From an uncultured Candidatus Saccharibacteria bacterium (GTDB lineage: Bacteria > Patescibacteriota > Minisyncoccia > Phycocordibacterales > UBA9973): a stretch of 64,000 bases of DNA. Positions within the stretch are counted from its first letter, which is position 1; each line of letters starts with the position of its first letter. Of the stretch, positions 8,514 to 59,741 are shown in pieces. A model generated the notes under the pieces. That model saw only the letters and a list, made by a program, of their open reading frames with translations. It ran no database searches and had not been told where the DNA came from. The DNA is taken from assembly GCA_964591445.1 (NCBI GenBank), contig CAZQAW010000001.1, positions 14,625 through 78,624 of the forward strand, written 5' to 3'. A program made the translations under genes and the position numbers.

Positions 8514-11429
8514 TTACACCGCTACAATGTTAACAAGTCTTCCCTTCACGTAGACTATTTTGACGATCTTTTTGCCGTCAGTCCATTTTTTGATCATTTC
8601 GTTTTCCTGCGCTTTCGATTTGATGATTTCTTCGTCCATGTCTACCGGTATAATGAGTTCCGCACGAACTTTGCCATTTACCTGAAGCGCAATAGTGACT
8701 TCGTCGTCAACGATTTTCGATTCGTCATACTGTGGCCACGTTGAGAGATGGATAGAAGCCGTCTCGCCAAGCTCGTGCCACAGTTCTTCGGCAATGTGCG
8801 GCGCGAATGGAGAAAGGAGTTTGCAGAAAGTAAGGAGATCTTGTTTTGCAATTCCTTCTTCTTTTTCCCATAGGTTGAGTAGAATCATCATTTGGGAAAT
8901 GCAGGTGTTGAATTTATACTCGGCAATATCTTCTGATATTTTTTTGATTGCTTTGTGAAGCGCTTTGCTTGCAGTATCGCTTGTTGTTTTTCCTGCGTCA
9001 TTATTTTTTTCTACAAGCCTCCACACTCGCTCCAAGAATTTTCGCACGCCCACAACTCCATTCGGGTCCCAAGGATAATTTCCTCCGTCTCCATACGGAC
9101 CCATGAATGCCAAATACAATCGCACAGTGTCAGCACCCAAAAGCTGAACCACTTGGTCGGGGTCAATGACGTTACCTTTGGATTTACTCATTTTGTTTCC
9201 GTCCGGGCCAAGAATAAGTCCGCGATTGCGGCGCGCAAGATACGGCTCGGTTTCTTCCACCATGCCAGCATCGTGCATCGCCTTCACCCAAAAGCGTGAA
9301 TAGAGCAAGTGCATCGTTGTGTGTTCTGCTCCACCGAAATACATATTGATCGGCATCCAAGCTTTGCGAGATGCTTTGCTTGCAAATTCATTTTCATTTT
9401 TCGGGTCAAGATATCGATAGAAATACCACGAAGAGTCGACAAATGTGTCCATCGTTTCAACTTCCGGTGTCCAGCCTTCCCCAAAAATATCTGTCACTCG
9501 CTTTTTCAATTCAGCACTGCGAGCAAGCGGCGCAGTTCCGTCTGGAGTATGGTCAACATCTGTTGGCAAAAGCCACGGCAAATGTTCGTTCGGAACTGCA
9601 TGCGCTTTGCCCGCTGGGTCGTACACAATAGGAATCGGCACACCCCAATAACGCTGACGAGAAATTCCCCAGTCGCGCAAACGATAAGTGTTCACCATTT
9701 TTCCACCGACGTGTTCTGTGATTTTCTTTTTCGCTTCTTCAGACGGAAGGCCAGTGAATGTAGCGGAGTCTTCCAGTATTCCACAATCAGTTAAGCACGT
9801 AGTTTTAAATTTTTTCGCATCGCTTGTGGTGTCGTAGCCGAGTTCGATCGCACGAGCTACTGATTCATCCAAAAATCTAATGTAATGTTTCAATCCATCT
9901 TCGTCGTTGTGAGTTTCCCAATATGTTTTTATTTCTTCAGCCGTCTTCCAGCCAAGAGTAAATTTTTCGTGCGCTTCAAGTTTAGTTGGTTTTGTCTGGG
10001 CGCTGTTAAGAATGATCAAAAAGCATTCGGCTCGGGCCGAGCGATTTACCTGTTTAAGTGTATTAAAATAATGCGCATAACTTGATTCGATCCATTCGAC
10101 ATATTTGAAATCATACAACCCACTTTCTTCTGCAACTTCACGCAGAACTCCTTTTTCGACAGATTCTCCATCATCAACCCCGCCCGCAAACAAAAGTATT
10201 TTTCCGTTTTCAAATTCACTCACCGCATATTTCTGAGTTGCTGGATCAAAAATAATTCCAGCACCGCCATTTCGAAATTCTTCGTTTTCTCTCTTCTGTC
10301 CAGTTTCTCGAGCAATCACTTTTTTTATCGGCAAATTATATTTCTTCGCAAATTCAAAATCACGTTCATCGTGCGCTGGCACTGCCATTACCGCACCTGT
10401 TCCGTAATTTACTAACACATAATCTGCAACCCATACTGGCACTTCTTCGCCATTTGCAGGATTAATTGCTTTTATACCCTGGAGCTCTACTCCTGTTTTT
10501 TCTTTTGATTGCTGGCGGTCAAGGTCGGACTTCTTTTTCGACAGAGAAATGTATTTTTCAACTTCATTCCAATTTGAAATACTTTCTTTAAGTTTTGACA
10601 CAAGAGTATGCTCAGGAGACAACACAACATACGTAACACCAAACAATGTGTCAGCACGAGTAGTGAAAACCCGAATACTCTCCCTCTCCTGGCTAGGAGA
10701 GGGCTGGGGTGAGGTTGTAATTTTAAATTCAATCTCGCTTCCTTCGCTTCTGCCAATCCAATTCTTCTGCGCTTCTTTGATATGCTCCGGCCAATCCAAA
10801 GTATCCAAGTCGTCGATCAATCTGTCTGCGTATTTTGTAATGCGGAACATCCACTGGTCTTGATCTTTCTGTATCACTTCAGCACCACAGCGTTCGCAGC
10901 AGCCGTTTGTCACTTGCTCGTTTGCAAGCACCGTTTTGTCTTTCGGACACCAGTTCACTTGCGTTGTTGCGCGATACACCAAATCTTTTTTCAAAAATTT
11001 TGCGAACATCCACTGCGTCCATTTGTAGTAAGATGGATCGCACGTCACCACTTCTCGCGACCAATCAAACGAAGTTCCGATCGAGTAAAATTGCTCGCGC
11101 ATTTTATCCATGTGCGAGTATGTCCACACTTTCGGGTCTTGGCCAAGTTTGATAGCCGCGTTTTCAGCCGGAAGTCCAAAGGCGTCGAAGCCCATCGGGT
11201 AGAGTACATTAAAACCTTTCATTCGTTTGTAGCGCGCATACATGTCTGGAATAGCAAAAGCGTACCAGTGCCCGACGTGCAAATTCCCGGAAGGATAAGC
11301 AAATTCAACCAAAGTATAGAAATTCTCTTTGCCGGTAACGCTATCTTCTACACGGTATACGCCCTGTTCCCGCCAAGCATCCTGCCATTTCTTTTCGATA
11401 TCTTTATGGTTATATTCGCGCTTTTTCAT
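8514..11429 (-). CDS. leuS: Leucyl-tRNA synthetase carrying two insertions: a palindromic-element peptide and a Nudix-box domain.
   Basis: HVGH (HIGH motif), the CP1 editing domain TTRADTLFGVTYVV...AHDERDFEFA, VNTYRLRDWGISRQRYWG, and KMSKSKGN. The protein is 971 aa, longer than the ~860 aa typical of bacterial LeuRS. Confidence 0.95.
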   Translation of the reverse strand: MKKREYNHKDIEKKWQDAWREQGVYRVEDSVTGKENFYTLVEFAYPSGNLHVGHWYAFAIPDMYARYKRMKGFNVLYPMGFDAFGLPAENAAIKLGQDPKVWTYSHMDKMREQFYSIGTSFDWSREVVTCDPSYYKWTQWMFAKFLKKDLVYRATTQVNWCPKDKTVLANEQVTNGCCERCGAEVIQKDQDQWMFRITKYADRLIDDLDTLDWPEHIKEAQKNWIGRSEGSEIEFKITTSPQPSPSQERESIRVFTTRADTLFGVTYVVLSPEHTLVSKLKESISNWNEVEKYISLSKKKSDLDRQQSKEKTGVELQGIKAINPANGEEVPVWVADYVLVNYGTGAVMAVPAHDERDFEFAKKYNLPIKKVIARETGQKRENEEFRNGGAGIIFDPATQKYAVSEFENGKILLFAGGVDDGESVEKGVLREVAEESGLYDFKYVEWIESSYAHYFNTLKQVNRSARAECFLIILNSAQTKPTKLEAHEKFTLGWKTAEEIKTYWETHNDEDGLKHYIRFLDESVARAIELGYDTTSDAKKFKTTCLTDCGILEDSATFTGLPSEEAKKKITEHVGGKMVNTYRLRDWGISRQRYWGVPIPIVYDPAGKAHAVPNEHLPWLLPTDVDHTPDGTAPLARSAELKKRVTDIFGEGWTPEVETMDTFVDSSWYFYRYLDPKNENEFASKASRKAWMPINMYFGGAEHTTMHLLYSRFWVKAMHDAGMVEETEPYLARRNRGLILGPDGNKMSKSKGNVIDPDQVVQLLGADTVRLYLAFMGPYGDGGNYPWDPNGVVGVRKFLERVWRLVEKNNDAGKTTSDTASKALHKAIKKISEDIAEYKFNTCISQMMILLNLWEKEEGIAKQDLLTFCKLLSPFAPHIAEELWHELGETASIHLSTWPQYDESKIVDDEVTIALQVNGKVRAELIIPVDMDEEIIKSKAQENEMIKKWTDGKKIVKIVYVKGRLVNIVAV
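10676..10717. repeat. Copy A of the in-frame palindromic element (actct-ccctctcc-tggcta-ggagaggg-ctggggtgaggttg) inside leuS.
   Basis: Identical 36-nt core to the copies at 31229-31264 and 33731-33766. It forms an 8-bp perfect hairpin ccctctcc/ggagaggg. In the leuS frame it reads [13 protein letters not shown]. Confidence 0.85.
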
Positions 11430-12570: not shown

Positions 12571-13167
12571 ATGACACCCAAACCGAAACAACCATTCAAA
12601 AAGCGCGAGCTTACAGACATCGAGAAAATGTCGATGGCGCTTACTCGTTGGGTCGGCTCGACAAAGTCGCTCGTTGCGCATACTGTATTTTTCGCTGTCA
12701 TGATACTCCTTGCCATTTCCGGTGTCGGTTTTGACAAAGTGCTTCTCATCCTCACAACGGTCGTTTCGCTTGAAGCAATTTATCTTTCCATTTTTATCCA
12801 AATGTCTGTGAACCGCCAAGCTCGCCGACTGCGTGAAGTGTCGCAAGATATCGAAGAGATTCAAGAAGACGTTGAGGAAATCCAAGAAGATGTCGAAGAA
12901 ATTGCCGAGGATGTGGAAGGCATTGAAAAAGATATCGATGAAATCCAAGAAAATGTGGACGAGATTCAGGAGGACGTGGAAGACATTACCGAAGATGTCG
13001 AGGATATTACCGAAGACGTAGACATGTATGAAAAAGAAGAGAAAGTCCGCGATGAAGCGATGATGAACAACATTCAGAACACGCTCGCGGAACTGATGCG
13101 AGAAATTCAAGAATTGAAAGAAAGCAAAGCAAGCAAAACTGTCGTGAAGAAAAAATTGGAAAAATAA
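12571..13167 (+). CDS. DUF1003-like small membrane protein with an acidic heptad-repeat tail.
   Basis: LTRWVGSTKSLVAHTVFFAVMILL and the following TM match the DUF1003 pattern. The C-terminus is about 8.5 tandem heptads, EDVEEIQ/EDVEDIT. Confidence 0.6.
   Translation: MTPKPKQPFKKRELTDIEKMSMALTRWVGSTKSLVAHTVFFAVMILLAISGVGFDKVLLILTTVVSLEAIYLSIFIQMSVNRQARRLREVSQDIEEIQEDVEEIQEDVEEIAEDVEGIEKDIDEIQENVDEIQEDVEDITEDVEDITEDVDMYEKEEKVRDEAMMNNIQNTLAELMREIQELKESKASKTVVKKKLEK
12850..13029 (+). repeat. Tandem 21-nt coding repeat, about 8.5 units (gatgtcgaagaaattcaagaa-like).
   Basis: Direct tandem repeats visible in the nucleotide sequence, encoding (D/E)(V/I)(E/D)EI(Q/A/T)E heptads. Confidence 0.7.
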
Positions 13168-14789: not shown

Positions 14790-15314
14790 TTAAAACTCAA
14801 TCACGTAGCGCAAAAGTTTCTTGCCCCAGATCGGACCCGAAGAATCTATGCCGATTCGCGGAGTTTTGCGGATTTTTCCTTCAAGCGGTTTTTTACGCCA
14901 TTTGATATACAAGCCATTTTTCTTTTCCGCTTTTAAAGTATTCAAACTTTTATCTATGTGCAAATATTTTGTAAGCTTTCCCGGTCCGTCCACTTTTCTC
15001 CCATCATCTTCTCCACCTTTTATAATTCCTCCACGGATTAAAATCGCCGCCGGATAACCTTTTTCTCTGGTAACAAAATTCAGCATCCAATGCATCCCAT
15101 AACTCAAATACACATACCAATGTTCCGGCGCGCCAAACATCACAAAGTTACGCATCGTTTCTCCGCGAGCGGCATGCGAAGCCTTGTCTTCATGTCCATC
15201 ATAAATTTCCACTTCGTTTATCACCAAAGCAATGGACTTTCCCTCCCAAACCCGCACCAAAGTACTCCCGAGCATATCGAGCGCAATTTGTTCAGAGGAT
15301 TTAAAGGTTTTCAT
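14790..15314 (-). CDS. mpg: DNA-3-methyladenine glycosylase (Mpg/AAG family).
   Basis: EVEIYDG...ASHAARG.T.RN..MFGAPEHWYVYLSYGMHWMLNFV matches the AAG/Mpg family core. Confidence 0.8.
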   Translation of the reverse strand: MKTFKSSEQIALDMLGSTLVRVWEGKSIALVINEVEIYDGHEDKASHAARGETMRNFVMFGAPEHWYVYLSYGMHWMLNFVTREKGYPAAILIRGGIIKGGEDDGRKVDGPGKLTKYLHIDKSLNTLKAEKKNGLYIKWRKKPLEGKIRKTPRIGIDSSGPIWGKKLLRYVIEF

Positions 15315-18071: not shown

Positions 18072-18659
18072 ATGACAAAGCAGGAACAGCTTGCCGAACT
18101 GCATAAAAAATGGCTTGCTGAATGCACTTGTGAATTGCGCCACACTGCGACACAGGGTGTGCCGGGCGATGGAAATGCGAATTCAGATATTGTGTTCATC
18201 GGCGAAGCACCGGGCAAAGATGAAGATATCCAAGGCCGGCCTTTTGTTGGCAGAGCTGGGCAATTCTTGAACGAAATGCTTGCGAGCATCAATATGAAGC
18301 GCGAGGATATTTATATTACAAACATCGTCAAATATCGCCCGCCGAACAATCGCGACCCATTGCCAGATGAAATCGCCGCTTGCAAAGAGTGGTTGCACGA
18401 AGAGCTCGCGCTTATCAAACCAAAGCTCATCATTTTCTTGGGACGGCATTCAATGAATCATTATTTTCCGCTTGAGAAAATTTCGCAGATTCATGGAAAG
18501 CTTATTATCAAAAGTTTTCAGGGCATGGGGCGGCAGCATTTCTTCCCTCTTTATCACCCGGCGGCAGCGCTTTACAATGGCGGCATGCGCGAAACTTTGA
18601 TGGAAGATTTTCTTAAAATACCGAAGGTTCTCCAAAAAATAGAACGTACAGAAAAATAA
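18072..18659 (+). CDS. Uracil-DNA glycosylase, family 4.
   Basis: GEAPG motif (IVFIGEAPGKDED), N-terminal cysteine cluster CTCELRH, and the C-terminal HP...LYN region typical of family-4 UDG. Confidence 0.85.
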   Translation: MTKQEQLAELHKKWLAECTCELRHTATQGVPGDGNANSDIVFIGEAPGKDEDIQGRPFVGRAGQFLNEMLASINMKREDIYITNIVKYRPPNNRDPLPDEIAACKEWLHEELALIKPKLIIFLGRHSMNHYFPLEKISQIHGKLIIKSFQGMGRQHFFPLYHPAAALYNGGMRETLMEDFLKIPKVLQKIERTEK

Positions 18660-27829: not shown

Positions 27830-29080
27830 CTAAGAAAGAAAATTTTTATTTCTTTTCTGTTTATGGAAATCAATAGCGAAACGATGCGACTCTGAGTTTG
27901 CAAGCACGATTTCTTTTGCATATTTCGTCGCGTATTCTTTGTCTCCCAAAATTTCTCGCGCTTTGTGTTTATCGTCTTTCACTACCGACACAAGAGGAAT
28001 TTTCATTTGATAACGGAACAGTACTTGCTTTGCAACGTTTAACTGTCCGACGCCACCGTCTATCACCACCAAATCCGGCATACCCCATTCGTTGTGTCGC
28101 AGTCTGCGCGAAAGCACTTCTTCAAGCGCGCCGGTGTCGTTCGAACCACTTTGTGAACGAATGATGAATTTGCGGTATTCATTTTTGTCCGGAGTTCCGT
28201 TTACAAGCACTGTCATTACACCAACCATATTTTTGCCGCTCATATGAGCGATATCGTACGCCTCGATACGGAAACTTGAAGAAAGCATCGTGTGTGAATC
28301 CAAGAAATCGCTTTTCATAAGAGCGATGTCGTTGATGTGTTCAAGCGCAAAAACCGTTTTCTTCACTTCATCTGCAAGTTCAAATTCCTGACGCTTGGCA
28401 TGCATCATCATTTCCTTTTTAAGTTCGCGAACGATCTGCTTTTTCTTGCCCTCAAAGAAAAGTTTGATGTTGCGGATCGTTTTTTGATATCGCTCGCGAG
28501 CTTCTTCCTCTACAACGTCGGGCGTAAGTCCAAGCTGTTTGTAAAATTCATAATTATCTTTCTTCGAAGAATACTGGTCGCGAAATGGGAAAATTCTGCG
28601 GATAATTTTCAAAGCTTCACGCAAAGAACCACCGCTTGTAAATGGGCCATACACAGCTTGGAGCTTCACTTCGCGCTTGCCGCGCTCGATCTTTGCACTT
28701 TTTTTATCTGCGCTCAAATCTTTTTTGCGAATACTTAAAACTTGCGGAAAATCTTCTTTCGTAATACCTACAACAAGAAAACTTTTTCCGTCTTTTTCTT
28801 TGACGTTATAATGCGGCTGGAATTTCCGAATAAGTTCCGCTTCCAAAATAAGCGCTTCCAAAACTGAATCTGTTTCTTCAAAAGTCACAGTGTCAGACTT
28901 GAACACCATGTCGACAATCGAAGGCCCGCGAGTCTTGATCAAGTCCTTTGCAAAATAACTTTTTGTTCGATCACGCAAAGATGTCGCTTTTCCAATGTAC
29001 AAAATATCCTTCCCTTTCCGGAAGAAATACACGCCAGGCGCTGGCGGCAATTTGAGTTTTGCTAAATCTTGACTTTTCAT
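27830..29080 (-). CDS. uvrC: Excinuclease ABC subunit C, short form lacking the C-terminal (HhH)2 domain.
   Basis: GIY-YIG domain (PGVYFFRKGKDILYIGKATSLRDRTKSYF) and the RNase-H-like endonuclease domain (IEAYDIAHMSG...LVVIDGGVGQLNVA). The protein ends about 150 aa earlier than canonical UvrC. Confidence 0.85.
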   Translation of the reverse strand: MKSQDLAKLKLPPAPGVYFFRKGKDILYIGKATSLRDRTKSYFAKDLIKTRGPSIVDMVFKSDTVTFEETDSVLEALILEAELIRKFQPHYNVKEKDGKSFLVVGITKEDFPQVLSIRKKDLSADKKSAKIERGKREVKLQAVYGPFTSGGSLREALKIIRRIFPFRDQYSSKKDNYEFYKQLGLTPDVVEEEARERYQKTIRNIKLFFEGKKKQIVRELKKEMMMHAKRQEFELADEVKKTVFALEHINDIALMKSDFLDSHTMLSSSFRIEAYDIAHMSGKNMVGVMTVLVNGTPDKNEYRKFIIRSQSGSNDTGALEEVLSRRLRHNEWGMPDLVVIDGGVGQLNVAKQVLFRYQMKIPLVSVVKDDKHKAREILGDKEYATKYAKEIVLANSESHRFAIDFHKQKRNKNFLS

Positions 29081-29435
29081 TATATGAAATGTACCATAAA
29101 CATTAAACAAAAAAAACTAATAATCAAATGCTACGAATTGCTTCACAAAGTTCGCAAAAAATGAGGAAGTCTTATCTTTATATTGGTTATATTACTGAAA
29201 ACGAGAAAAATTTTATTTGTTTTAGCTTTTTTTATAAAAATAACGAACAGGCATGCGACATGTCTATAAGTCATGAGAGTAAAACCGCACTGCTTACTGG
29301 ACCGTTTTATACAAATTTTATAAAAGAAAAGTTTCCTAAACAGGCACAGAAAATAACCAGAGCACTGAAACTATTTTTTACGAAAAACAATCTAAGCTGG
29401 GCGTCCAACAAGCAAGGGAAATAACCTTGCTTTTT

Positions 29436-32144
29436 TTATTTCTTCTTCAAAACTTTCTTCAAATATTGCCCGGTGTAAGACTTTGGTGTATTTGCAACTT
29501 CTTCCGGAGTTCCTTTGGCTACCAAATGTCCGCCGCCGATACCGCCTTCGGGCCCAAAGTCGAGAATATAGTCTGCGCATTTTATGAGATCCATGTTGTG
29601 CTCGATAACGACGACTGTATTCCCTTTGTCGACAAGACGGTTCAACACACCGATCAAATTTGCAACGTCATCATAGTGCAACCCGACAGTTGGTTCGTCG
29701 AGCAAGTAAATGGTTTTTTCAATATGAGGTCGATATAGTTCAGAAGAAATTTTCACACGCTGCGCTTCCCCGCCAGAAAGTGTCGTTGCGCTTTGGCCGA
29801 GCTTCACGTATCCAAGCCCGACATCCATGAGAGTTTTCAAGCGGTCATAAATAGCAGGAATATCTTCGTAGAATTTCAAACCTTCTTCAACGGTAAGCTG
29901 AAGAATTTCGTAAATATTCTTTTTCTTGTATTTTACTTTCAAAGTTTCTTTGTCGAAACGCTTGCCACCACACACGTCACACGTCACATACACTGTCGGC
30001 AAGAAATGCATTTCTACAGCGATTTCTCCATTTCCTTCACACGCTTCGCAGCGGCCACCTTTGACGTTGAATGAAAATCGGTTTGATTTCCAACCGCGGA
30101 TTCGTGATTCTTCGCTTTCAGCAAACAAGTCGCGGATAAATGTAAACGCGCCTGTGTATGTCGCAATGTTTGACCGCGGCGTTCGTCCGATCGGAGATTG
30201 GTCAATCAAAATCGCTCGAGACAAATATTCGGTACCAGTAAATGTTGCTGCATTAAAGACCTTTGCGCTACGATATTTGCGTTCAAAACGCGCTTGCAAA
30301 TTTTGGTGTACGATTTCATACATAAAAGAAGATTTGCCGGAACCAGACACACCAGTAATGCACACCAACTTTCCGAGAGGAATTTCAGCATTCACATTTT
30401 TGATATTGAAAGCATGTCCGCCGACAACCTTGAGCGAACCTTTGTCAGAGGTGCGGCGTTTTTCTGGAATAGGAATTCGCACTTCTTCGCGCAAGTACGC
30501 AAGGGTGCGAGATTTTGATGTGTTTGTTTTTGCGGCAAGCAATTTTTCTAAATCATCTTGCACTATCACTTCCCCGCCATGCACGCCGGCTTTCGGGCCG
30601 ATGTCTACCAGATAATCTGACGCGTAAATCGTATCTTCATCGTGTTCAACAACGATAATCGTATTTCCCAAATCTCGCAAATCTTCAAGCGTTTTGATCA
30701 AGCGTTCGTTATCGCGCTGATGCAAACCGATCGTCGGTTCGTCAAGCACGTACATTGCGCCGACGAGGCGTGAGCCGAGTTGTGATGCCAGACGGATACG
30801 CTGCGCTTCTCCGCCAGACAAAGTATTTGCCCGGCGTTCAAGCGCCAGATATTCCAAGCCGACGTTCAACATAAATTGCAATCGGTCTTCAATTTCACGG
30901 ATCACCGGTTTTGAAATTTCTTTTTCTTTTGCAGTCAGTTTAAGCTCGATGAAAAAGTCCGCCGCGTCTTGGATTGAAAGCGCAGTCAAATCTACAATGT
31001 TTGTTTTTTTAGTACCAAGAAACACATTGAGTGCTTCGATACGCAGACGCTTGCCGCCACAAACGTCGCAAGGTTCTGTACCCATAAAATATTTGCTTCC
31101 GAGCCCATTACATTCTGGACAAGCTCCGTACGGCGAGTTGAAAGAGAAAAGTCGCGGCTCAACTTCTGGGAAAGAAAAGCCGTCATTCGGACAAGAGAAT
31201 TTTGCAGAAAGAAGAAACTCTGAACTCTCCCTCTCCTGGCTAGGAGAGGGCTGGGGTGAGGTTGATCCAAATTGTATCGTCACCAAACCTTCACTTTCCA
31301 AAAGTGCGCGTTCGATAGACTCAGCTAAACGCATGCGCGCGTCGGCCGGGTTATCTGCAAATTCATGAAGCGCAAATTCGTCCACCATCACGTCGATATT
31401 GTGCTGCTTTGTTTTTGAAAGTTCGATACGGTCACGCAGATTTTTTATAGTCCCATCAAGTCGAACTTTGCTGTAGCCTTTGCCAAGCAAGTCGTACAAA
31501 AGCTGGTAGTACTCGCCTTTTCGTCCGCGAACCACCGGCGAATAGATCGTAATCGGTGTTTCGCTCCACTGCACTCCCATCACTTTTTTTGAGCCTTTGG
31601 TATTTTTTTTATACGTTTCAACTTTCTCGAGCATGAAATTCAAAATTTCTTCGTTCGAAAGTTTTTTGATTTCTTCGCCGCACTGTGGACAATGTGGCCG
31701 GCCGATACGCGCGTACAGCACGCGCAAATAGTCATAAATTTCGGTAATCGTTGCCACAGTTGAACGCGGGTTGTTCGAGCGAGATTTTTGGTCGATAGAA
31801 ATTGCCGGGGAAAGCCCGGAAATTTCATCAACTTCCGGCTTGCTCATTTGCTTCAAGAATTGTCGCGCATACGAAGAAAGAGATTCAACGTATCGTCGCT
31901 GGCCTTCAGCAAAAATAGTGTCGAACGCCAAAGAAGACTTTCCTGAACCGGAAAGCCCTGTGATCGCGATCATCTTGTTGCGCGGCATCTCAACATTAAT
32001 ATTCTTCAAGTTGTGTGTTCGAGCGCCTTTGACGATAATTTTTCCTTCACTGTCTTTTTTCATATATAAGCCAAGCGCACCCGGCAAGTCTCCTTGAGGG
32101 TGTCTATCTCTCTTTAACTTCTTTAAGTATACCACATATGCCAT
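29436..32144 (-). CDS. uvrA: Excinuclease ABC subunit A, carrying the 13-aa palindromic-element insert.
   Basis: Two ABC ATPase modules: [15 protein letters not shown] / [12 protein letters not shown] / [11 protein letters not shown], and [13 protein letters not shown] / [11 protein letters not shown] / [11 protein letters not shown]. Zinc-finger Cys pairs are present. Confidence 0.95.
31224..31264. repeat. Copy B of the in-frame palindromic element, inside uvrA.
   Basis: actctccctctcctggctaggagagggctggggtgaggttg is identical to copy A over 41 nt. In-frame it reads [13 protein letters not shown]. Confidence 0.85.
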
Positions 32145-32182
32145 ATGATGACAAAAATAATAAACGGAGTTACACTATACGT

Positions 32183-32626
32183 ATGAATATACAAACTATG
32201 GATCAAGGTATCATGCATACCATCAAGCGAGTTTCGCTTCCATTATCACGTATTGCTATTTTTGTCGTGTACTTTTGGTTTGGGATTTTAAAAGTGTTTG
32301 GTGTCAGCCCAGCAAACCCGCTTATCATGGCGCTTCAGCAACAAACACTTCCCTTCCTCACATTTCACCAATTCATCATCTTTTTTGGAATTGCAGAAAT
32401 GATCATCGGTATCATCTTTCTCATTCGCGGATGGGAGCGTCTGGCGATCGCATTACTTATGCTTCATATGATCACCACCATCCTTCCTCTTTTTCTTCTT
32501 CCTCAAATCGGTTGGCAAGGATTTTTTGTTCCGACCATTGAAGGACAATACATCATCAAAAACATAGTCATCATAGCCGCAGCCATAGGCATCGCCGCAC
32601 ATTCGCATCTGCAGCCGATGAAGTAA
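32183..32626 (+). CDS. Hypothetical 4-TM membrane protein.
   Basis: Hydrophobic helices (IAIFVVYFWFGILKVFGV, IIFFGIAEMIIGIIFLI, ...). The ORF-track start at 32138 overlaps the uvrA start. The more likely start is the Met of MNIQTMDQG. Confidence 0.5.
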   Translation: MNIQTMDQGIMHTIKRVSLPLSRIAIFVVYFWFGILKVFGVSPANPLIMALQQQTLPFLTFHQFIIFFGIAEMIIGIIFLIRGWERLAIALLMLHMITTILPLFLLPQIGWQGFFVPTIEGQYIIKNIVIIAAAIGIAAHSHLQPMK

Positions 32627-32676
32627 AGAATATTTTGTAGAAAACTTTTTATGTTGTATAATAAAAAGAAAAAGAT

Positions 32677-32895
32677 ATGGAAGCAAAAATTATCGATTTC
32701 TTCTTGATAATATTAACAATGTTTTTAATGTTATCAGTCTCAGATTTCACAGCGTGGTTAATGATAAAAATACCTATATTGGGTAAAGTAACAGAATACT
32801 TATGGAATTCACCCCGAGTTTCTTTTCTGGTATTACTTTATTTTATAATAATTGGTTTTTATTTTGAAACCAGATTAAACAAATACGCTTTGTAA
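32677..32895 (+). CDS. Possible small 2-TM membrane protein (low confidence).
   Basis: 72 aa, AT-rich. Confidence 0.3.
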   Translation: MEAKIIDFFLIILTMFLMLSVSDFTAWLMIKIPILGKVTEYLWNSPRVSFLVLLYFIIIGFYFETRLNKYAL

Positions 32896-32939
32896 GAAAA
32901 TGAGAAAATTCAACTAAGCAAGGATATAATCCTTGCTTT

Positions 32940-35099
32940 TTATTTTTCCGGTTCCAACTTTGCGCGTAAAACACTAATCTCGTCGCGAACAATCGCGGCC
33001 GTTTCAAAGTCGAGCTCTTTGACGGCTCTCGACATTTCTTTTTCTTTTATTTTGATGATTTTTTCGTAGACTGCCAAGTTGCGCTCTTCGTCAGAAAGTC
33101 TTGCAAGTTTTTTCTCTTCTTTTTTATCGAGCGCTTTGCGAGCTTTGCCAAGCACTTCAAAATCTATCGCAAGCTCAGCGTTCACCGCTTTTGCATGTTC
33201 AGATTCCATTTGTTCAGTAATGTCTTTGATATTTTTCTTGATCGTTTTCGGAGTAATGCTGTGCTTTTTGTTGTACTCCATTTGCACTGTTCGGCGGCGA
33301 TTTGTTTCGGCAATTGCACGTTCCATCGAGCCTGTCATGTTGTCTGCATACAAAATCACGCGACCCTGCGCGTTTCGAGCTGCGCGGCCGATAGTCTGGA
33401 TAAGCGATGTTTCGCTTCGAAGAAATCCTTCTTTGTCTGCGTCCAAAATGCCGATCAATTCTACTTCCGGCAAATCCAACCCTTCGCGGAGCAAGTTCAC
33501 TCCGACCAAACAATCAAATTCCCCTTTTCGAAATGCCGTCAAAATTTTAATTCGGTCAATTGTTTTAATATCGCTATGCAAATATTCTGATTTTATTTTT
33601 CGCTCTTTCAAATACGCAGCCAAATCTTCCGCCATTTTTTTCGTTAGCGTTGTTGCAAGCACGCGCCCGCCGCCCTTGATATTTGCAACCGCTTCTTCAA
33701 TAAAGTCTTGGACTTGGCCTGGGTAGTTCCCCCTCTCCTGGCTAGGAGAGGGCTGGGGTGAGGTTGATGCAGCCACCGGCTTGAGCGTAATTTCCGGATC
33801 AAGAAGTCCAGTTGGACGAATGATTTGTTCTACTATTTGGTCACTGTTTTCTCGTTCATAGTCGCTCGGAGTCGCTGAAGTATAAATCACTTGGCTTACG
33901 CGTTCTTCAAATTCGTTGTATTTAAGCGGGCGATTGTCTTTCGCGCTCGGCAAACGAAAACCGAATTCCACCAAAGTATTTTTACGAGCCTGGTCGCCAG
34001 CGTACATGCCGTGAAGCTGCGGAAGCGTCACATGCGATTCATCGATCACCACCAAAAAGTCCGCAGATCCATCTTTGTGATGTGGAAAATATGAAAGCAA
34101 TGTTTCTGGCGGCTCGCCTGCTTTTTTACCAGACAAATGTCGAGAATAGTTTTCGATTCCGCTGCAATAGCCGATTTCTTTGATCATCGCCAGGTCATAC
34201 GTCGTTCGTCGTTTGATTCGCTCCGCTTCCAAAAGCTTTCCTTCTTTTTCAAAAAGTTTGAGCTGGTCTGCAAGTTCTGCTTTGATCGCTTTTATTGCTT
34301 TTTCTTTTTTAGTTTCATTTGTCAAAAAGTGTTTTGCCGGAAAAAGGAAAATACTTTCTGGATTGTCGAGAATCTGCGAAGTCACCGGATCAATTTTTAA
34401 AATCTGCGTAATTTTTCCCGCTACGATTTCAATCGAAAGCATAAACGTTTCCGACACTGGCATGATTTCCACTTTATTACCAAGTGCACGAAACTGCCCT
34501 GAAGACAAATCTGCGTTTGTACGCGTAAAATGAATTGAAACTAAATTCGAAAGCAAATCATTGCGCGCCATTTTCATCCCAGGTTTTAATTCCAAATGTT
34601 CTTCGCGATATTCTTCTGGACTTCCCAAACCGTAAATACACGAAACCGACGCAACGATGATGACATCTTTTCTCGTAAGCAAAGATTGTGTTGACGCATG
34701 ACGAAGACGATCAATTTCTTTGTTGATCTGCGCGTCTTTTTCAATATACGTATCCGTCACCGGCATGTAAGCTTCCGGCTGGTAGTAGTCGTAATACGAA
34801 ACGAAATAATGCACCGCATGGTCTGGGAAAAATTCTCGATACTCTTGCGCAAGCTGTGCTGCAAGCGTTTTGTTGTGAGCAATCACCAAGGTTGGCTTTT
34901 CAAATTGCGCAATCACATTTGCAATAGTAAAAGTTTTACCAGTTCCCGTAGCACCAAGAAGGGTCTGCTTTTTCATCCCTTTTTTGAGGCCACTTACGAG
35001 GCCCTTGATAGCCTGAGGCTGGTCGCCATCCGGCTTATATTCGCTTGTAAGTTTGAAAAGCGGCATAGGTATCAGTACATTGTAAGCTATTTTGGGCAA
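32940..35099 (-). CDS. uvrB: Excinuclease ABC subunit B, carrying the palindromic-element insert.
   Basis: LLGATGTGKTFTIANVI (Walker A), VVIDESHVTLPQ (DEAH-like), the helicase C-terminal motifs, and the UVR domain at the C-terminus (ETAAIVRDEISVLRAKL). Confidence 0.95.
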   Translation of the reverse strand: MPKIAYNVLIPMPLFKLTSEYKPDGDQPQAIKGLVSGLKKGMKKQTLLGATGTGKTFTIANVIAQFEKPTLVIAHNKTLAAQLAQEYREFFPDHAVHYFVSYYDYYQPEAYMPVTDTYIEKDAQINKEIDRLRHASTQSLLTRKDVIIVASVSCIYGLGSPEEYREEHLELKPGMKMARNDLLSNLVSIHFTRTNADLSSGQFRALGNKVEIMPVSETFMLSIEIVAGKITQILKIDPVTSQILDNPESIFLFPAKHFLTNETKKEKAIKAIKAELADQLKLFEKEGKLLEAERIKRRTTYDLAMIKEIGYCSGIENYSRHLSGKKAGEPPETLLSYFPHHKDGSADFLVVIDESHVTLPQLHGMYAGDQARKNTLVEFGFRLPSAKDNRPLKYNEFEERVSQVIYTSATPSDYERENSDQIVEQIIRPTGLLDPEITLKPVAASTSPQPSPSQERGNYPGQVQDFIEEAVANIKGGGRVLATTLTKKMAEDLAAYLKERKIKSEYLHSDIKTIDRIKILTAFRKGEFDCLVGVNLLREGLDLPEVELIGILDADKEGFLRSETSLIQTIGRAARNAQGRVILYADNMTGSMERAIAETNRRRTVQMEYNKKHSITPKTIKKNIKDITEQMESEHAKAVNAELAIDFEVLGKARKALDKKEEKKLARLSDEERNLAVYEKIIKIKEKEMSRAVKELDFETAAIVRDEISVLRAKLEPEK
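33731..33766. repeat. Copy C of the in-frame palindromic element, inside uvrB.
   Basis: ccctctcctggctaggagagggctggggtgaggttg is identical to the 36-nt core. In-frame it reads [12 protein letters not shown]. Confidence 0.85.
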
Positions 35100-59265: not shown

Positions 59266-59274
59266 CTGGGTTTT

Positions 59275-59296
59275 CCCCTCCTTGGGTAAGGAGGGG
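59275..59296. repeat. 22-nt CT-rich hairpin palindrome cccctcctt-gggt-aaggagggg (left flank of the DUF559 gene).
   Basis: Exact reverse complement of the 59711-59732 copy. Confidence 0.7.
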
Positions 59297-59306
59297 TCGA
59301 CGCGCT

Positions 59307-59693
59307 TCAGGCGCGCGGGGGTGGTAATTTCTGTAGTTCAACCTTTATCCGATCAACTACTGAGGAAAGTTGAGTGAGAATTTCTTTATTACTAAAACGC
59401 ACAACTCTTTTTCCTAAAGATTCAAAATAGACAGTTCGCTTAGTGTCATATTCTTCTGCATCTTTTTCATAATGCTGAGAACCATCAATTTCTATAATGA
59501 GAAATTTTTTAGGACAATAAAAATCTGCAATGTATCCTCCAATACTATGCTGCCTACGAAATTTTACCCCGAGTTTATTATTTTGCAATTGCAACCAAAG
59601 AACCGCTTCTTCATGCGTTCCATGATTTCTGAGTTCTCTTCTTCTATCAACAAATTGAGGAGTGTTGTGAATAATTGGCATACAAGTTACCAA
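59307..59693 (-). CDS. DUF559-family protein (Vsr-like/PD-(D/E)xK endonuclease fold).
   Basis: ...EEAVLWLQLQNNKLGVKFRRQHSIGGYIADFYCPKKFLIIEIDGSQH...KRTVYFESLGKRVVRFSNKEI matches the DUF559 pattern. The start is TTG at 59693, or an internal ATG at 59681. Confidence 0.7.
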   Translation of the reverse strand: MVTCMPIIHNTPQFVDRRRELRNHGTHEEAVLWLQLQNNKLGVKFRRQHSIGGYIADFYCPKKFLIIEIDGSQHYEKDAEEYDTKRTVYFESLGKRVVRFSNKEILTQLSSVVDRIKVELQKLPPPRA

Positions 59694-59710
59694 CCCCAGC
59701 GCAAGCGCTG

Positions 59711-59732
59711 CCCCTCCTTACCCAAGGAGGGG
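59711..59732. repeat. 22-nt CT-rich hairpin palindrome cccctcctt-accc-aaggagggg (right flank of the DUF559 gene).
   Basis: Reverse complement of 59275-59296. Preceded by the GC palindrome cagcgcaagcgctg at 59697-59710. Confidence 0.7.
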
Positions 59733-59741
59733 AAAATTTTT

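Follow-up and report, generated by a model that had tools for sequence, protein, structure and literature searches.

The BoxC/PIT/TMECO repeats rank among the most conserved short repeats of bacteria, and their origin, spread and function have been unexplained since the 1990s; the earlier work on BoxC and PIT reportedly includes that of Bachellier in the 1990s and that of Hoyne and Maher in 2000. Selfish DNA that sits in frame within housekeeping genes is represented by the Rickettsia palindromic elements (RPEs), reportedly described by Ogata et al. in 2000. Here we analyze a short repeat found in the uvrB gene of an uncultured Candidatus Saccharibacteria bacterium (Patescibacteria), on a 64,000-nt stretch of contig CAZQAW010000001.1 (positions 14,625 to 78,624; hereafter "the window"). 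We consider it likely that this repeat, termed copy C, is a BoxC/PIT/TMECO copy that was recently inserted in frame into uvrB and that its family has spread by means of small cassettes encoding a DUF559 endonuclease.

PIT stands for potential intrastrand triplex, and TMECO is the later name of the BoxC repeats (Holder et al., 2015; PMC4666352), whose published consensus is CCCTCNCCC-N3-6-GGGNGAGGG-N3-GGGNGAGGG. The MG1655 genome carries 23 TMECO copies, which are always intergenic, and oligonucleotides bearing the E. coli motif form a triplex in vitro, as determined by circular dichroism and nuclear magnetic resonance (NMR; PMC4666352). In the same study, PIT elements acted neither as promoters nor as terminators in E. 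coli, TMECO loci were unusually variable or rearranged between strains, no mobility genes were reported near the copies, and the host range surveyed consisted of 262 proteobacteria plus cyanobacteria.

An earlier note on this DNA had described an identical 36-nt core within uvrB, and both its coordinates and its peptide proved correct. The 36-mer, CCCTCTCCTGGCTAGGAGAGGGCTGGGGTGAGGTTG, is located at 33731-33766 (+) and occurs three times in the window without a mismatch, at 10682-10717 (copy A), 31229-31264 (copy B) and 33731-33766 (copy C). Its expected recurrence, judged from 100 dinucleotide-preserving shuffles of the window, is 0, and it is the window's only real interspersed repeat. Of the six reading frames through the element, three are open; the copies share one orientation and use the same frame, within leuS (8514-11429, - strand), uvrA (29436-32144, - strand) and uvrB (32940..35099, - strand; a 719-aa open reading frame (ORF) matching NCBIfam NF003673 with 954 bits), each scoring above its curated NCBIfam cut-off. 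The peptide read from the shared core is identical in LeuS, UvrA and UvrB. Copy A (10677..10715, - strand), in frame in leuS within the loop between NWIGRSEGSEIEFKIT and IRVFTTRADT, and copy B (31224..31262, - strand), 13 aa in frame in uvrA, are 39-nt versions that differ from copy C by an extra tandem duplication of CTCTCC, seen on their coding strand as GGAGAG-GGAGAG. The difference in 5' flank that had been remarked upon was borne out as well: on the + strand, copies A and B have five further bases in common (ACTCT) where copy C has ttcc. Comparing flanks had also been put forward as a way to find a target-site duplication; none is visible at copies A, B or C from flanks or empty sites, nor is a terminal inverted repeat beyond the internal hairpin, and a miniature inverted-repeat transposable element was rejected on both grounds.

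We use triplex motif (TM) for a pyrimidine/purine hairpin followed by a mirrored third block. Copy C spans 34 nt (33731..33764, +) in a 9-4-9-3-9 layout, consisting of a C-block (CCCTCTCCT, 33731-33739), a first loop (GGCT, 33740-33743), a G-block (AGGAGAGGG, 33744-33752), a second loop (CTG, 33753-33755) and a mirror third block (GGGTGAGGT, 33756-33764), all on the + strand. Block 2 is the exact reverse complement of block 1, giving a predicted 9-bp hairpin, and block 3, when reversed and set against block 2, obeys the rules of the purine-motif triplex (G*G, A*A, T*A) at 9/9 positions, such that all nine triads are triplex-compatible. The G-rich, triplex-forming strand is the + strand, i.e., the template strand of uvrB. 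Of the original description as a 36-nt palindrome, the short repeat with its hairpin is retained, whereas the size (net 33 nt) and the simple palindrome are not, given the third mirror block.

Copy C is a member of the BoxC/PIT/TMECO family of triplex motifs. Its 3-nt second loop, CTG, is followed by GGGTGAGGT, the third G/T block that mirrors the purine one. The published pattern in its strict form, CCCTCNCCC N3-6 GGGNGAGGG N3 GGGNGAGGG, fails at one position per block and passes if the loop-proximal triad is allowed to be T:A*T. The departure from the E. coli consensus is a coordinated change of one triad across the three blocks, from C:G*G to T:A*T, and since the substitution is coordinated three ways, the architecture is kept. 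In addition, the segment GGAGAGGG-CTG-GGGTGAGG is identical to E. coli copies, and the same 19-nt core is shared by E. coli, phage-like contigs and this genome of the candidate phyla radiation (CPR). A consensus 40-mer occurs in 5344 of 5426 complete E. coli genomes, at a median of 15 places that are all intergenic among the matches listed. The relaxed core GGAGAGGGNTGGGGTGAGG occurs in more than 120 viral contigs among the matches listed, nearly all of which read CCCTCTCC(C)-loop-(G)GGAGAGGG-YTG-GGGTGAGGG. Like the E. coli repeats, the element is multi-copy (three identical copies in 64 kb vs. 0 expected). The intergenic location seen in E. coli is not shared, since all three copies are within ORFs; a related copy, the one match to a 30-mer of the element in JGI metagenomes (locus L202), is intergenic. 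The exact 33-mer had 0 matches in GTDB representative genomes, no Rfam family matches the element (the sole matches in the window are three tRNAs), and literature searches with its sequence and peptide strings found no papers. Copy C therefore belongs to a known family, but in a setting that has not been reported, i.e., in frame within essential genes of Patescibacteria.

Copy C entered uvrB recently, as a 33-nt in-frame insertion in an insertion-tolerant surface linker. The linker before the C-terminal helicase domain had been named as the site, and a gap in the alignment to PDB structures, a coil in an AlphaFold2 model and relatives with an empty site all agree. The closest UvrB matches are in metagenome-assembled genomes (MAGs) of Paceibacteria/Nomurabacteria-type Patescibacteria. 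Alignment to solved UvrB structures in the PDB leaves 17 residues of the window protein unmatched exactly here, after the strand that ends in ..KPV and before the helix GQ(V/I)(Q/D)D, and the spacing from RPTG to TTLTK, 44 residues in 40/80 relatives vs. 55 in the window, corresponds to an insertion of 11 residues or 33 nt (33732..33764, - strand; UvrB residues 446-456). Empty-site relatives read ..SASGNYSGQ.. or ..PTGGYPGQ..; the Gly codon following the insert belongs to the host motif (S/K)GNYPGQ and not to the element. In the AlphaFold2 model of UvrB (mean predicted local distance difference test score (pLDDT) of 69), residues 445-457 form a coil with pLDDT<50 between strand E436-440 and helix H462-475.

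The UvrB site is a permissive insertion hot spot. Some insert occupies exactly the same point in 40/80 relatives, with several unrelated peptide families represented, and the DNAs of these inserts are mostly strong palindromes of 30-135 nt. The site is empty in P0003-P0017 (80-87% identity), and in P0002, the nearest relative (95%), it is occupied by a palindromic insert of ~105 nt that differs from copy C. The sister insert is at 9117-9234 of locus L204 and aligns with 33725-33767 of the window; Tgt of the sister strain (L203-L205) is 18-36 aa longer. A different uvrB insert together with a longer Tgt in a sister at 95% indicates that in-frame inserts turn over quickly between close strains. 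Copy B, by contrast, is present in uvrA of the sister strain, where three independent assemblies (L203-L205) show the same sequence, flanks included; copy B is therefore older than the split of the strains, and copy C was either gained after the split or replaced in the sister. The copies are genuine and not artefacts of assembly. Many UvrA proteins, too, have in-frame inserts at a fixed loop, and the inserts in UvrB and UvrA of the related loci (80 Paceibacteria uvrB loci, L122-L201) include recurrent families (SLRRSHSVLEGQ.SS..SEDS, FSRSS...RPSKN and NRLSL...AHTYDFFSK), which look like further coding-region mini-element families in CPR bacteria. Programmed translational bypass (byp-like) and splicing were both rejected, since no stop codon occurs in the TM copies, which measure 33 or 39 nt, and since every insert seen in relatives is part of an uninterrupted ORF.

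The UvrA site (baseline ..TIRIADEETLLSAKF) and the LeuS site (baseline of 22-23 residues from NWIGRS to VFTTRADT) are insertion hot spots as well. In relatives (P0122-P0236), copy A's LeuS loop holds whole domains, including DUF559, ASCH, hydrolase-like and others, and the window's own LeuS has an inserted NUDIX domain (Nudix box GGVDDGESVEKGVLREVAEESGL) common to most Paceibacteria LeuS homologues. A generic TM finder, which requires a mirrored third block in addition to the pyrimidine/purine hairpin, was run on 80 related loci (972 kb) and returned 28 further TM-like elements, of which at least 19 fall within long ORFs, including those of UvrB, UvrA and Tgt. Both orientations are represented, inverted doublets are frequent (one is in tgt), and the subfamilies found are CCCCTCC/GGAGGGG/GGGG[AT]GG, CCTCCCC/GGGGAGG/GGAGGGG and TCCCCC/GGGGGA/AGGGGG. 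Coding-region TMs are thus common in this lineage; the window itself has a coding density of 0.92. In a set of 32 distinct arm families, 31% of third blocks mirror their own G-arm exactly, as opposed to 3.5% with non-cognate arms and 6.5% when a direct copy is scored instead. Because each third block varies with the purine arm of its own element, the three-block structure is conserved, and not the sequence alone. We favour a triplex over a G-quadruplex reading of the G-tracts, as published NMR supports the former and mirror-repeat covariation fits it better.

A possible vehicle for the spread of TMs is encoded in the window itself. A DUF559 cassette (59271..59736, - strand) contains a free-standing Vsr-like endonuclease gene (59307-59693, - strand) and ends on both sides in a perfect 26-nt inverted repeat, TTTTCCCCTCCTTGGGTAAGGAGGGG (59271-59296, +; 59711-59736, -). 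On the gene side of each repeat is a small GC hairpin and then a G-rich third block, making the cassette ends long-loop TMs of a subfamily other than that of copies A-C. The C-terminal tail of the DUF559 protein is encoded by the repeat itself. Copy C is a solo TM without DUF559. In three other Paceibacteria LeuS (L209-L211), copy A's loop holds an in-frame DUF559 domain (PF04480, Vsr-like) with inverted TMs on both sides; in one example, the flanks read CCCATCCC-CGA-CCCTTCCC-AAA-GGGAAGGG ... CCCTTCCC-TTG-GGGAAGGG-CAG-GGATGGG. A DUF559 profile search of all fetched loci showed that, in the CPR loci among them, every DUF559 has a TM at its border, and in L174, L183, L189 and L201 a TM-like element borders the gene on at least one side.

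The association extends beyond Patescibacteria. In the viral locus L027, which was selected for its TM, a DUF559 gene lies between two TMs. Among 36 viral DUF559 loci, purine/pyrimidine hairpins are ~16x denser within 250 nt of the gene (86 in 28 kb) than beyond (14 in 74 kb); they occur near DUF559 in 21/36 loci, usually on both sides and inverted, and loci L224 and L225 contain the canonical ...GGGAGAGGG-CTG-GGGTGAGGG. Plasmid and chromid loci were sampled from Picosynechococcus, Pseudanabaena, Deinococcus, Neisseria, Sinorhizobium, Sphingomonas, Azospirillum and Photobacterium, i.e., from Cyanobacteria, Deinococcus, Neisseria, Alphaproteobacteria and Gammaproteobacteria, and TM-type elements were present within ~250 nt of DUF559 in 8/8 of those fetched. 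The Sphingomonas cassette is wedged between sufB and sufC; the plasmid collection held no close relative for an empty-site comparison there. Tandem TM arrays made of two alternating subfamilies adjoin DUF559 in Photobacterium (L266, 1916-3345), in N. gonorrhoeae (L261, 2007-2699) and in a viral locus (L213, 1-153). DUF559 is strongly associated physically with TMs across phyla. This flanking appears to be unreported: no open-access DUF559 paper has an apparent link to these repeats by title or abstract, and intrastrand-triplex and Vsr/homing-endonuclease terms do not co-occur in the open-access literature.

The DUF559 alignment shows invariant catalytic residues (E, D, H and D), and the profile matches PDB 3hrl, a N. 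gonorrhoeae protein, and, more weakly (E=9e-5), the catalytic domain of I-Bth0305I (3r3p). The latter is an EDxHD/Vsr-like homing endonuclease found in a group I intron of recA (PMC3239194; see also PMC3424549). Furthermore, DUF559 genes are enriched among predicted targets of programmed inversion (PMC9881135), which fits with flanking inverted repeats.

E. coli provides a comparison within the genome where BoxC is best described. In MG1655, the sole TMECO in a 30-kb stretch is 165 nt downstream of ycjD, a DUF559 gene (L212, 1351-1352 kb), and the 3' end of ycjD is itself TM-like. The fabI-sapF interval is dimorphic: ~62% of genomes have ycjD plus the TMECO, and ~38%, including ST131 (L267/L268) and O157:H7, have neither and carry a 7.5-kb TetR/RND/MFS efflux operon. 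The alternative haplotype is thus a replacement by the efflux operon and not a clean empty site. In a spread sample of genomes, those with ycjD had ~4.7 additional TM places vs. ~2-2.5 in those without it. Published TMECO counts per strain are 19-30 for K-12, A and B1, 1-2 for B2 and 11 for O157, and lineages lacking ycjD tend toward fewer TMECOs.

These observations suggest a mechanism. TMs may serve as terminal inverted repeats of small DUF559 cassettes (Vsr-like, of PD-(D/E)XK/EDxHD type) or as structures by which these are recognized, with DUF559 as the candidate enzyme that recognizes TMs and moves or maintains them. Solo TMs such as copies A-C and inverted doublets would then probably be non-autonomous derivatives of cassettes, arising by mobilization in trans or as remnants after loss of the endonuclease gene; the spread of repetitive extragenic palindromic (REP/REPIN) sequences with the REP-associated tyrosine transposase (RAYT) offers an analogy. 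In uvrB, the insert would be translated as an 11-residue disordered loop rich in Pro, Ser and Gln. In a 92%-coding genome, only insertions that preserve the frame, lack stops and fall in loops would be expected to survive, making the insert a putative selfish or neutral passenger, like the RPEs, and not a functional module of the protein. As for the wider proposition, we judge the chances to be about even that BoxC/PIT/TM repeats are the cognate ends or targets of DUF559 Vsr-like endonuclease cassettes, i.e., of a pan-bacterial, REP-RAYT-like selfish system. Its solo and doublet derivatives would colonize intergenic DNA in most bacteria and, in coding-dense Patescibacteria, permissive in-frame loops of essential proteins, sometimes with the whole endonuclease domain, as in LeuS.

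Several points weigh against the cassette mechanism. Binding or cleavage of TMs by DUF559 is a putative role, and translation of the insert is deduced from sequence. The terminal repeats of the window's cassette are of the CCCCTCC/GGAGGGG subfamily, whereas copies A-C have CCCTCTCCT/AGGAGAGGG, and no cognate enzyme for these copies is visible in the 64 kb. The TMs flanking DUF559 occur in two topologies, with the third block toward or away from the gene, which is looser than in classic terminal inverted repeats, and those of viral locus L027 are direct repeats. Only 1/120 viral loci selected for TMs contains a DUF559 gene, and the enrichment of hairpins near viral DUF559 genes could partly reflect intergenic vs. 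coding sequence. The correlation between ycjD and TMs in E. coli agrees with the prediction, but phylogeny confounds it, and O157:H7 lacks ycjD yet keeps ~11 TMECOs. Finally, no triplex was detected in living E. coli cells (PMC4666352).

Some of the same evidence can be read in the opposite direction, with TMs as targets that arise and spread by host processes, such as slippage during replication, a switch of template at stalled forks or gene conversion between copies, and DUF559 genes as free-standing, homing-type genes that preferentially insert into or beside TMs already present; the uvrB copy would then be unrelated to DUF559. The two flank topologies and the one case of direct repeats would be at home in such a scheme, as would the preponderance of solo TMs, the tandem TM arrays that adjoin some DUF559 genes, and the unusually rearranged TM loci of E. 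coli, near which no mobility gene is reported (PMC4666352). However, slippage or conversion fails to explain how an identical unit of 33-39 nt came to be at three unrelated sites without flanking homology, and equally fails to explain why a 19-nt core is conserved across phyla. Moreover, near-identical inverted copies bound single DUF559 genes wedged in operons (e.g., sufB-sufC) and in LeuS. We regard this scheme as unlikely.

A selected module is a weaker proposition, and we consider it improbable that the repeat is kept as a Pro/Ser linker that tunes UvrB, UvrA and LeuS, or as a DNA or RNA structure (hairpin, triplex or G-rich tract) that regulates transcription, translational pausing or local mutation. 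PIT elements lack promoter and terminator activity in E. coli (PMC4666352). The use of one frame and one orientation in all three genes, the retention of copy B with identical flanks in the 95% sister and the stability of the mRNA hairpin (about -17 kcal/mol) would accord with selection. On the other hand, the three proteins whose genes share this DNA are unrelated, disorder is predicted for the region, and most close relatives have nothing at the UvrB site and others, the nearest sister among them, have unrelated sequences there.

Hairpins are also substrates of Y1 single-strand transposases, whose action leaves no target duplication. Movement of a REP-like element by such an enzyme (RAYT or IS200-IS605-type) would accommodate a hairpin-based repeat lacking both target-site duplication and terminal inverted repeats, and the coding-strand 5' flanks of the three copies are similar (TACA, ATCA and ATCA), being too few to define a target. 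However, no GTAG/CGTC tag is present, the GTAG near copy C being host codons for NYP, and the recurrent neighbour of TMs is DUF559 and not RAYT. In addition, a Pfam scan of 30 unassigned ORFs of the window found no Y1_Tnp or other transposase domain. We therefore think this origin very improbable. That the repeat is a chimeric sequence spliced into MAG genes by assembly or sequencing error is hardly credible: the source is indeed a MAG and copy C was seen only in this genome, but copy B is identical in three independent assemblies, all copies preserve the frame at loops where relatives hold other inserts, and the NCBI protein record P0001 has the insert.

The presence of two of the three copies in excision-repair genes had raised the possibility of a target-site preference, which our results do not support. 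The loops in UvrB, UvrA and LeuS are general hot spots that take many unrelated inserts, TM-like elements also occur in tgt and other genes, and a distance of 2.5 kb separates uvrA from its neighbour uvrB. DNA-repair genes are plentiful in the window, which has a methylpurine glycosylase (14790-15314), a glycosylase of the uracil-DNA glycosylase family (18072-18659) and a uvrC-uvrA-(DUF417)-uvrB cluster (27830-35099). The location of two copies in excision-repair genes is probably due to this clustering. Elsewhere in the window, positions 12847-13014 consist of six tandem 21-nt coding repeats that specify acidic heptads (D-x-E-E-I-x-E), with the strand of the ORF ambiguous.

Our results have consequences for both the repeats and the enzyme. 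TM repeats can reside in frame in essential genes, where they would be translated, and Patescibacteria would represent a second, independent case, after Rickettsia, of selfish DNA in protein-coding genes. They also serve as a warning that many indels in alignments of CPR proteins are repeat insertions. The flanking of DUF559 by TMs supplies a concrete and directly testable candidate enzyme for the spread of BoxC/TM repeats, with E. coli YcjD and the N. gonorrhoeae protein of PDB 3hrl as available representatives, and, if the proposal is true, a role could be assigned to a large domain family of unknown function.

Among described systems, BoxC/PIT/TMECO is the closest. The window copies share its three-block, 9-(3-6)-9-3-9 architecture and nearly the same sequence, as well as near-identical multiple copies, no promoter or terminator logic and local genome variability. 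They differ in being in frame within coding genes, whereas E. coli copies are intergenic; in their patescibacterial host, as opposed to the proteobacteria and cyanobacteria of the published survey; in the one triad that is T:A*T in all blocks; and in the recurrent DUF559 flanking, whereas no mobility gene figures in the published work. RPEs resemble the element as short, palindromic selfish DNA that is in frame in housekeeping genes of reduced genomes with high coding density, with the peptide placed on the protein surface away from catalytic parts. Indeed, ORFs, PDB alignment and the AlphaFold2 model all indicate an in-frame, surface-exposed insertion for the window element. However, RPEs are 100-150 bp, restricted to Rickettsia and without a triplex third block, whereas the window element is 33-39 nt and of a pan-bacterial family; there is no sequence relationship, and the element falls outside the families and lengths of RPE-1 to RPE-8.

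Likeness to REP/REPIN-RAYT systems is found in the short GC-rich hairpins, occurring solo or as inverted doublets with strain-variable copy number, and in a "domesticated" nuclease gene that is present once and bordered by repeats of its own. In contrast to REPs, TMs have no GTAG/CGTC tag, possess a third mirror block and are intragenic here, and their partner is the PD-(D/E)XK, Vsr-like DUF559 and not an HUH/Y1 enzyme. I-Bth0305I (3r3p), lastly, is comparable in that its catalytic domain is matched by the DUF559 profile and in that small nuclease genes reside inside host genes. It differs in occupying a group I intron of recA, whereas DUF559 is in frame in LeuS with no intron or intein, to be translated with its host, and is flanked by TM repeats.

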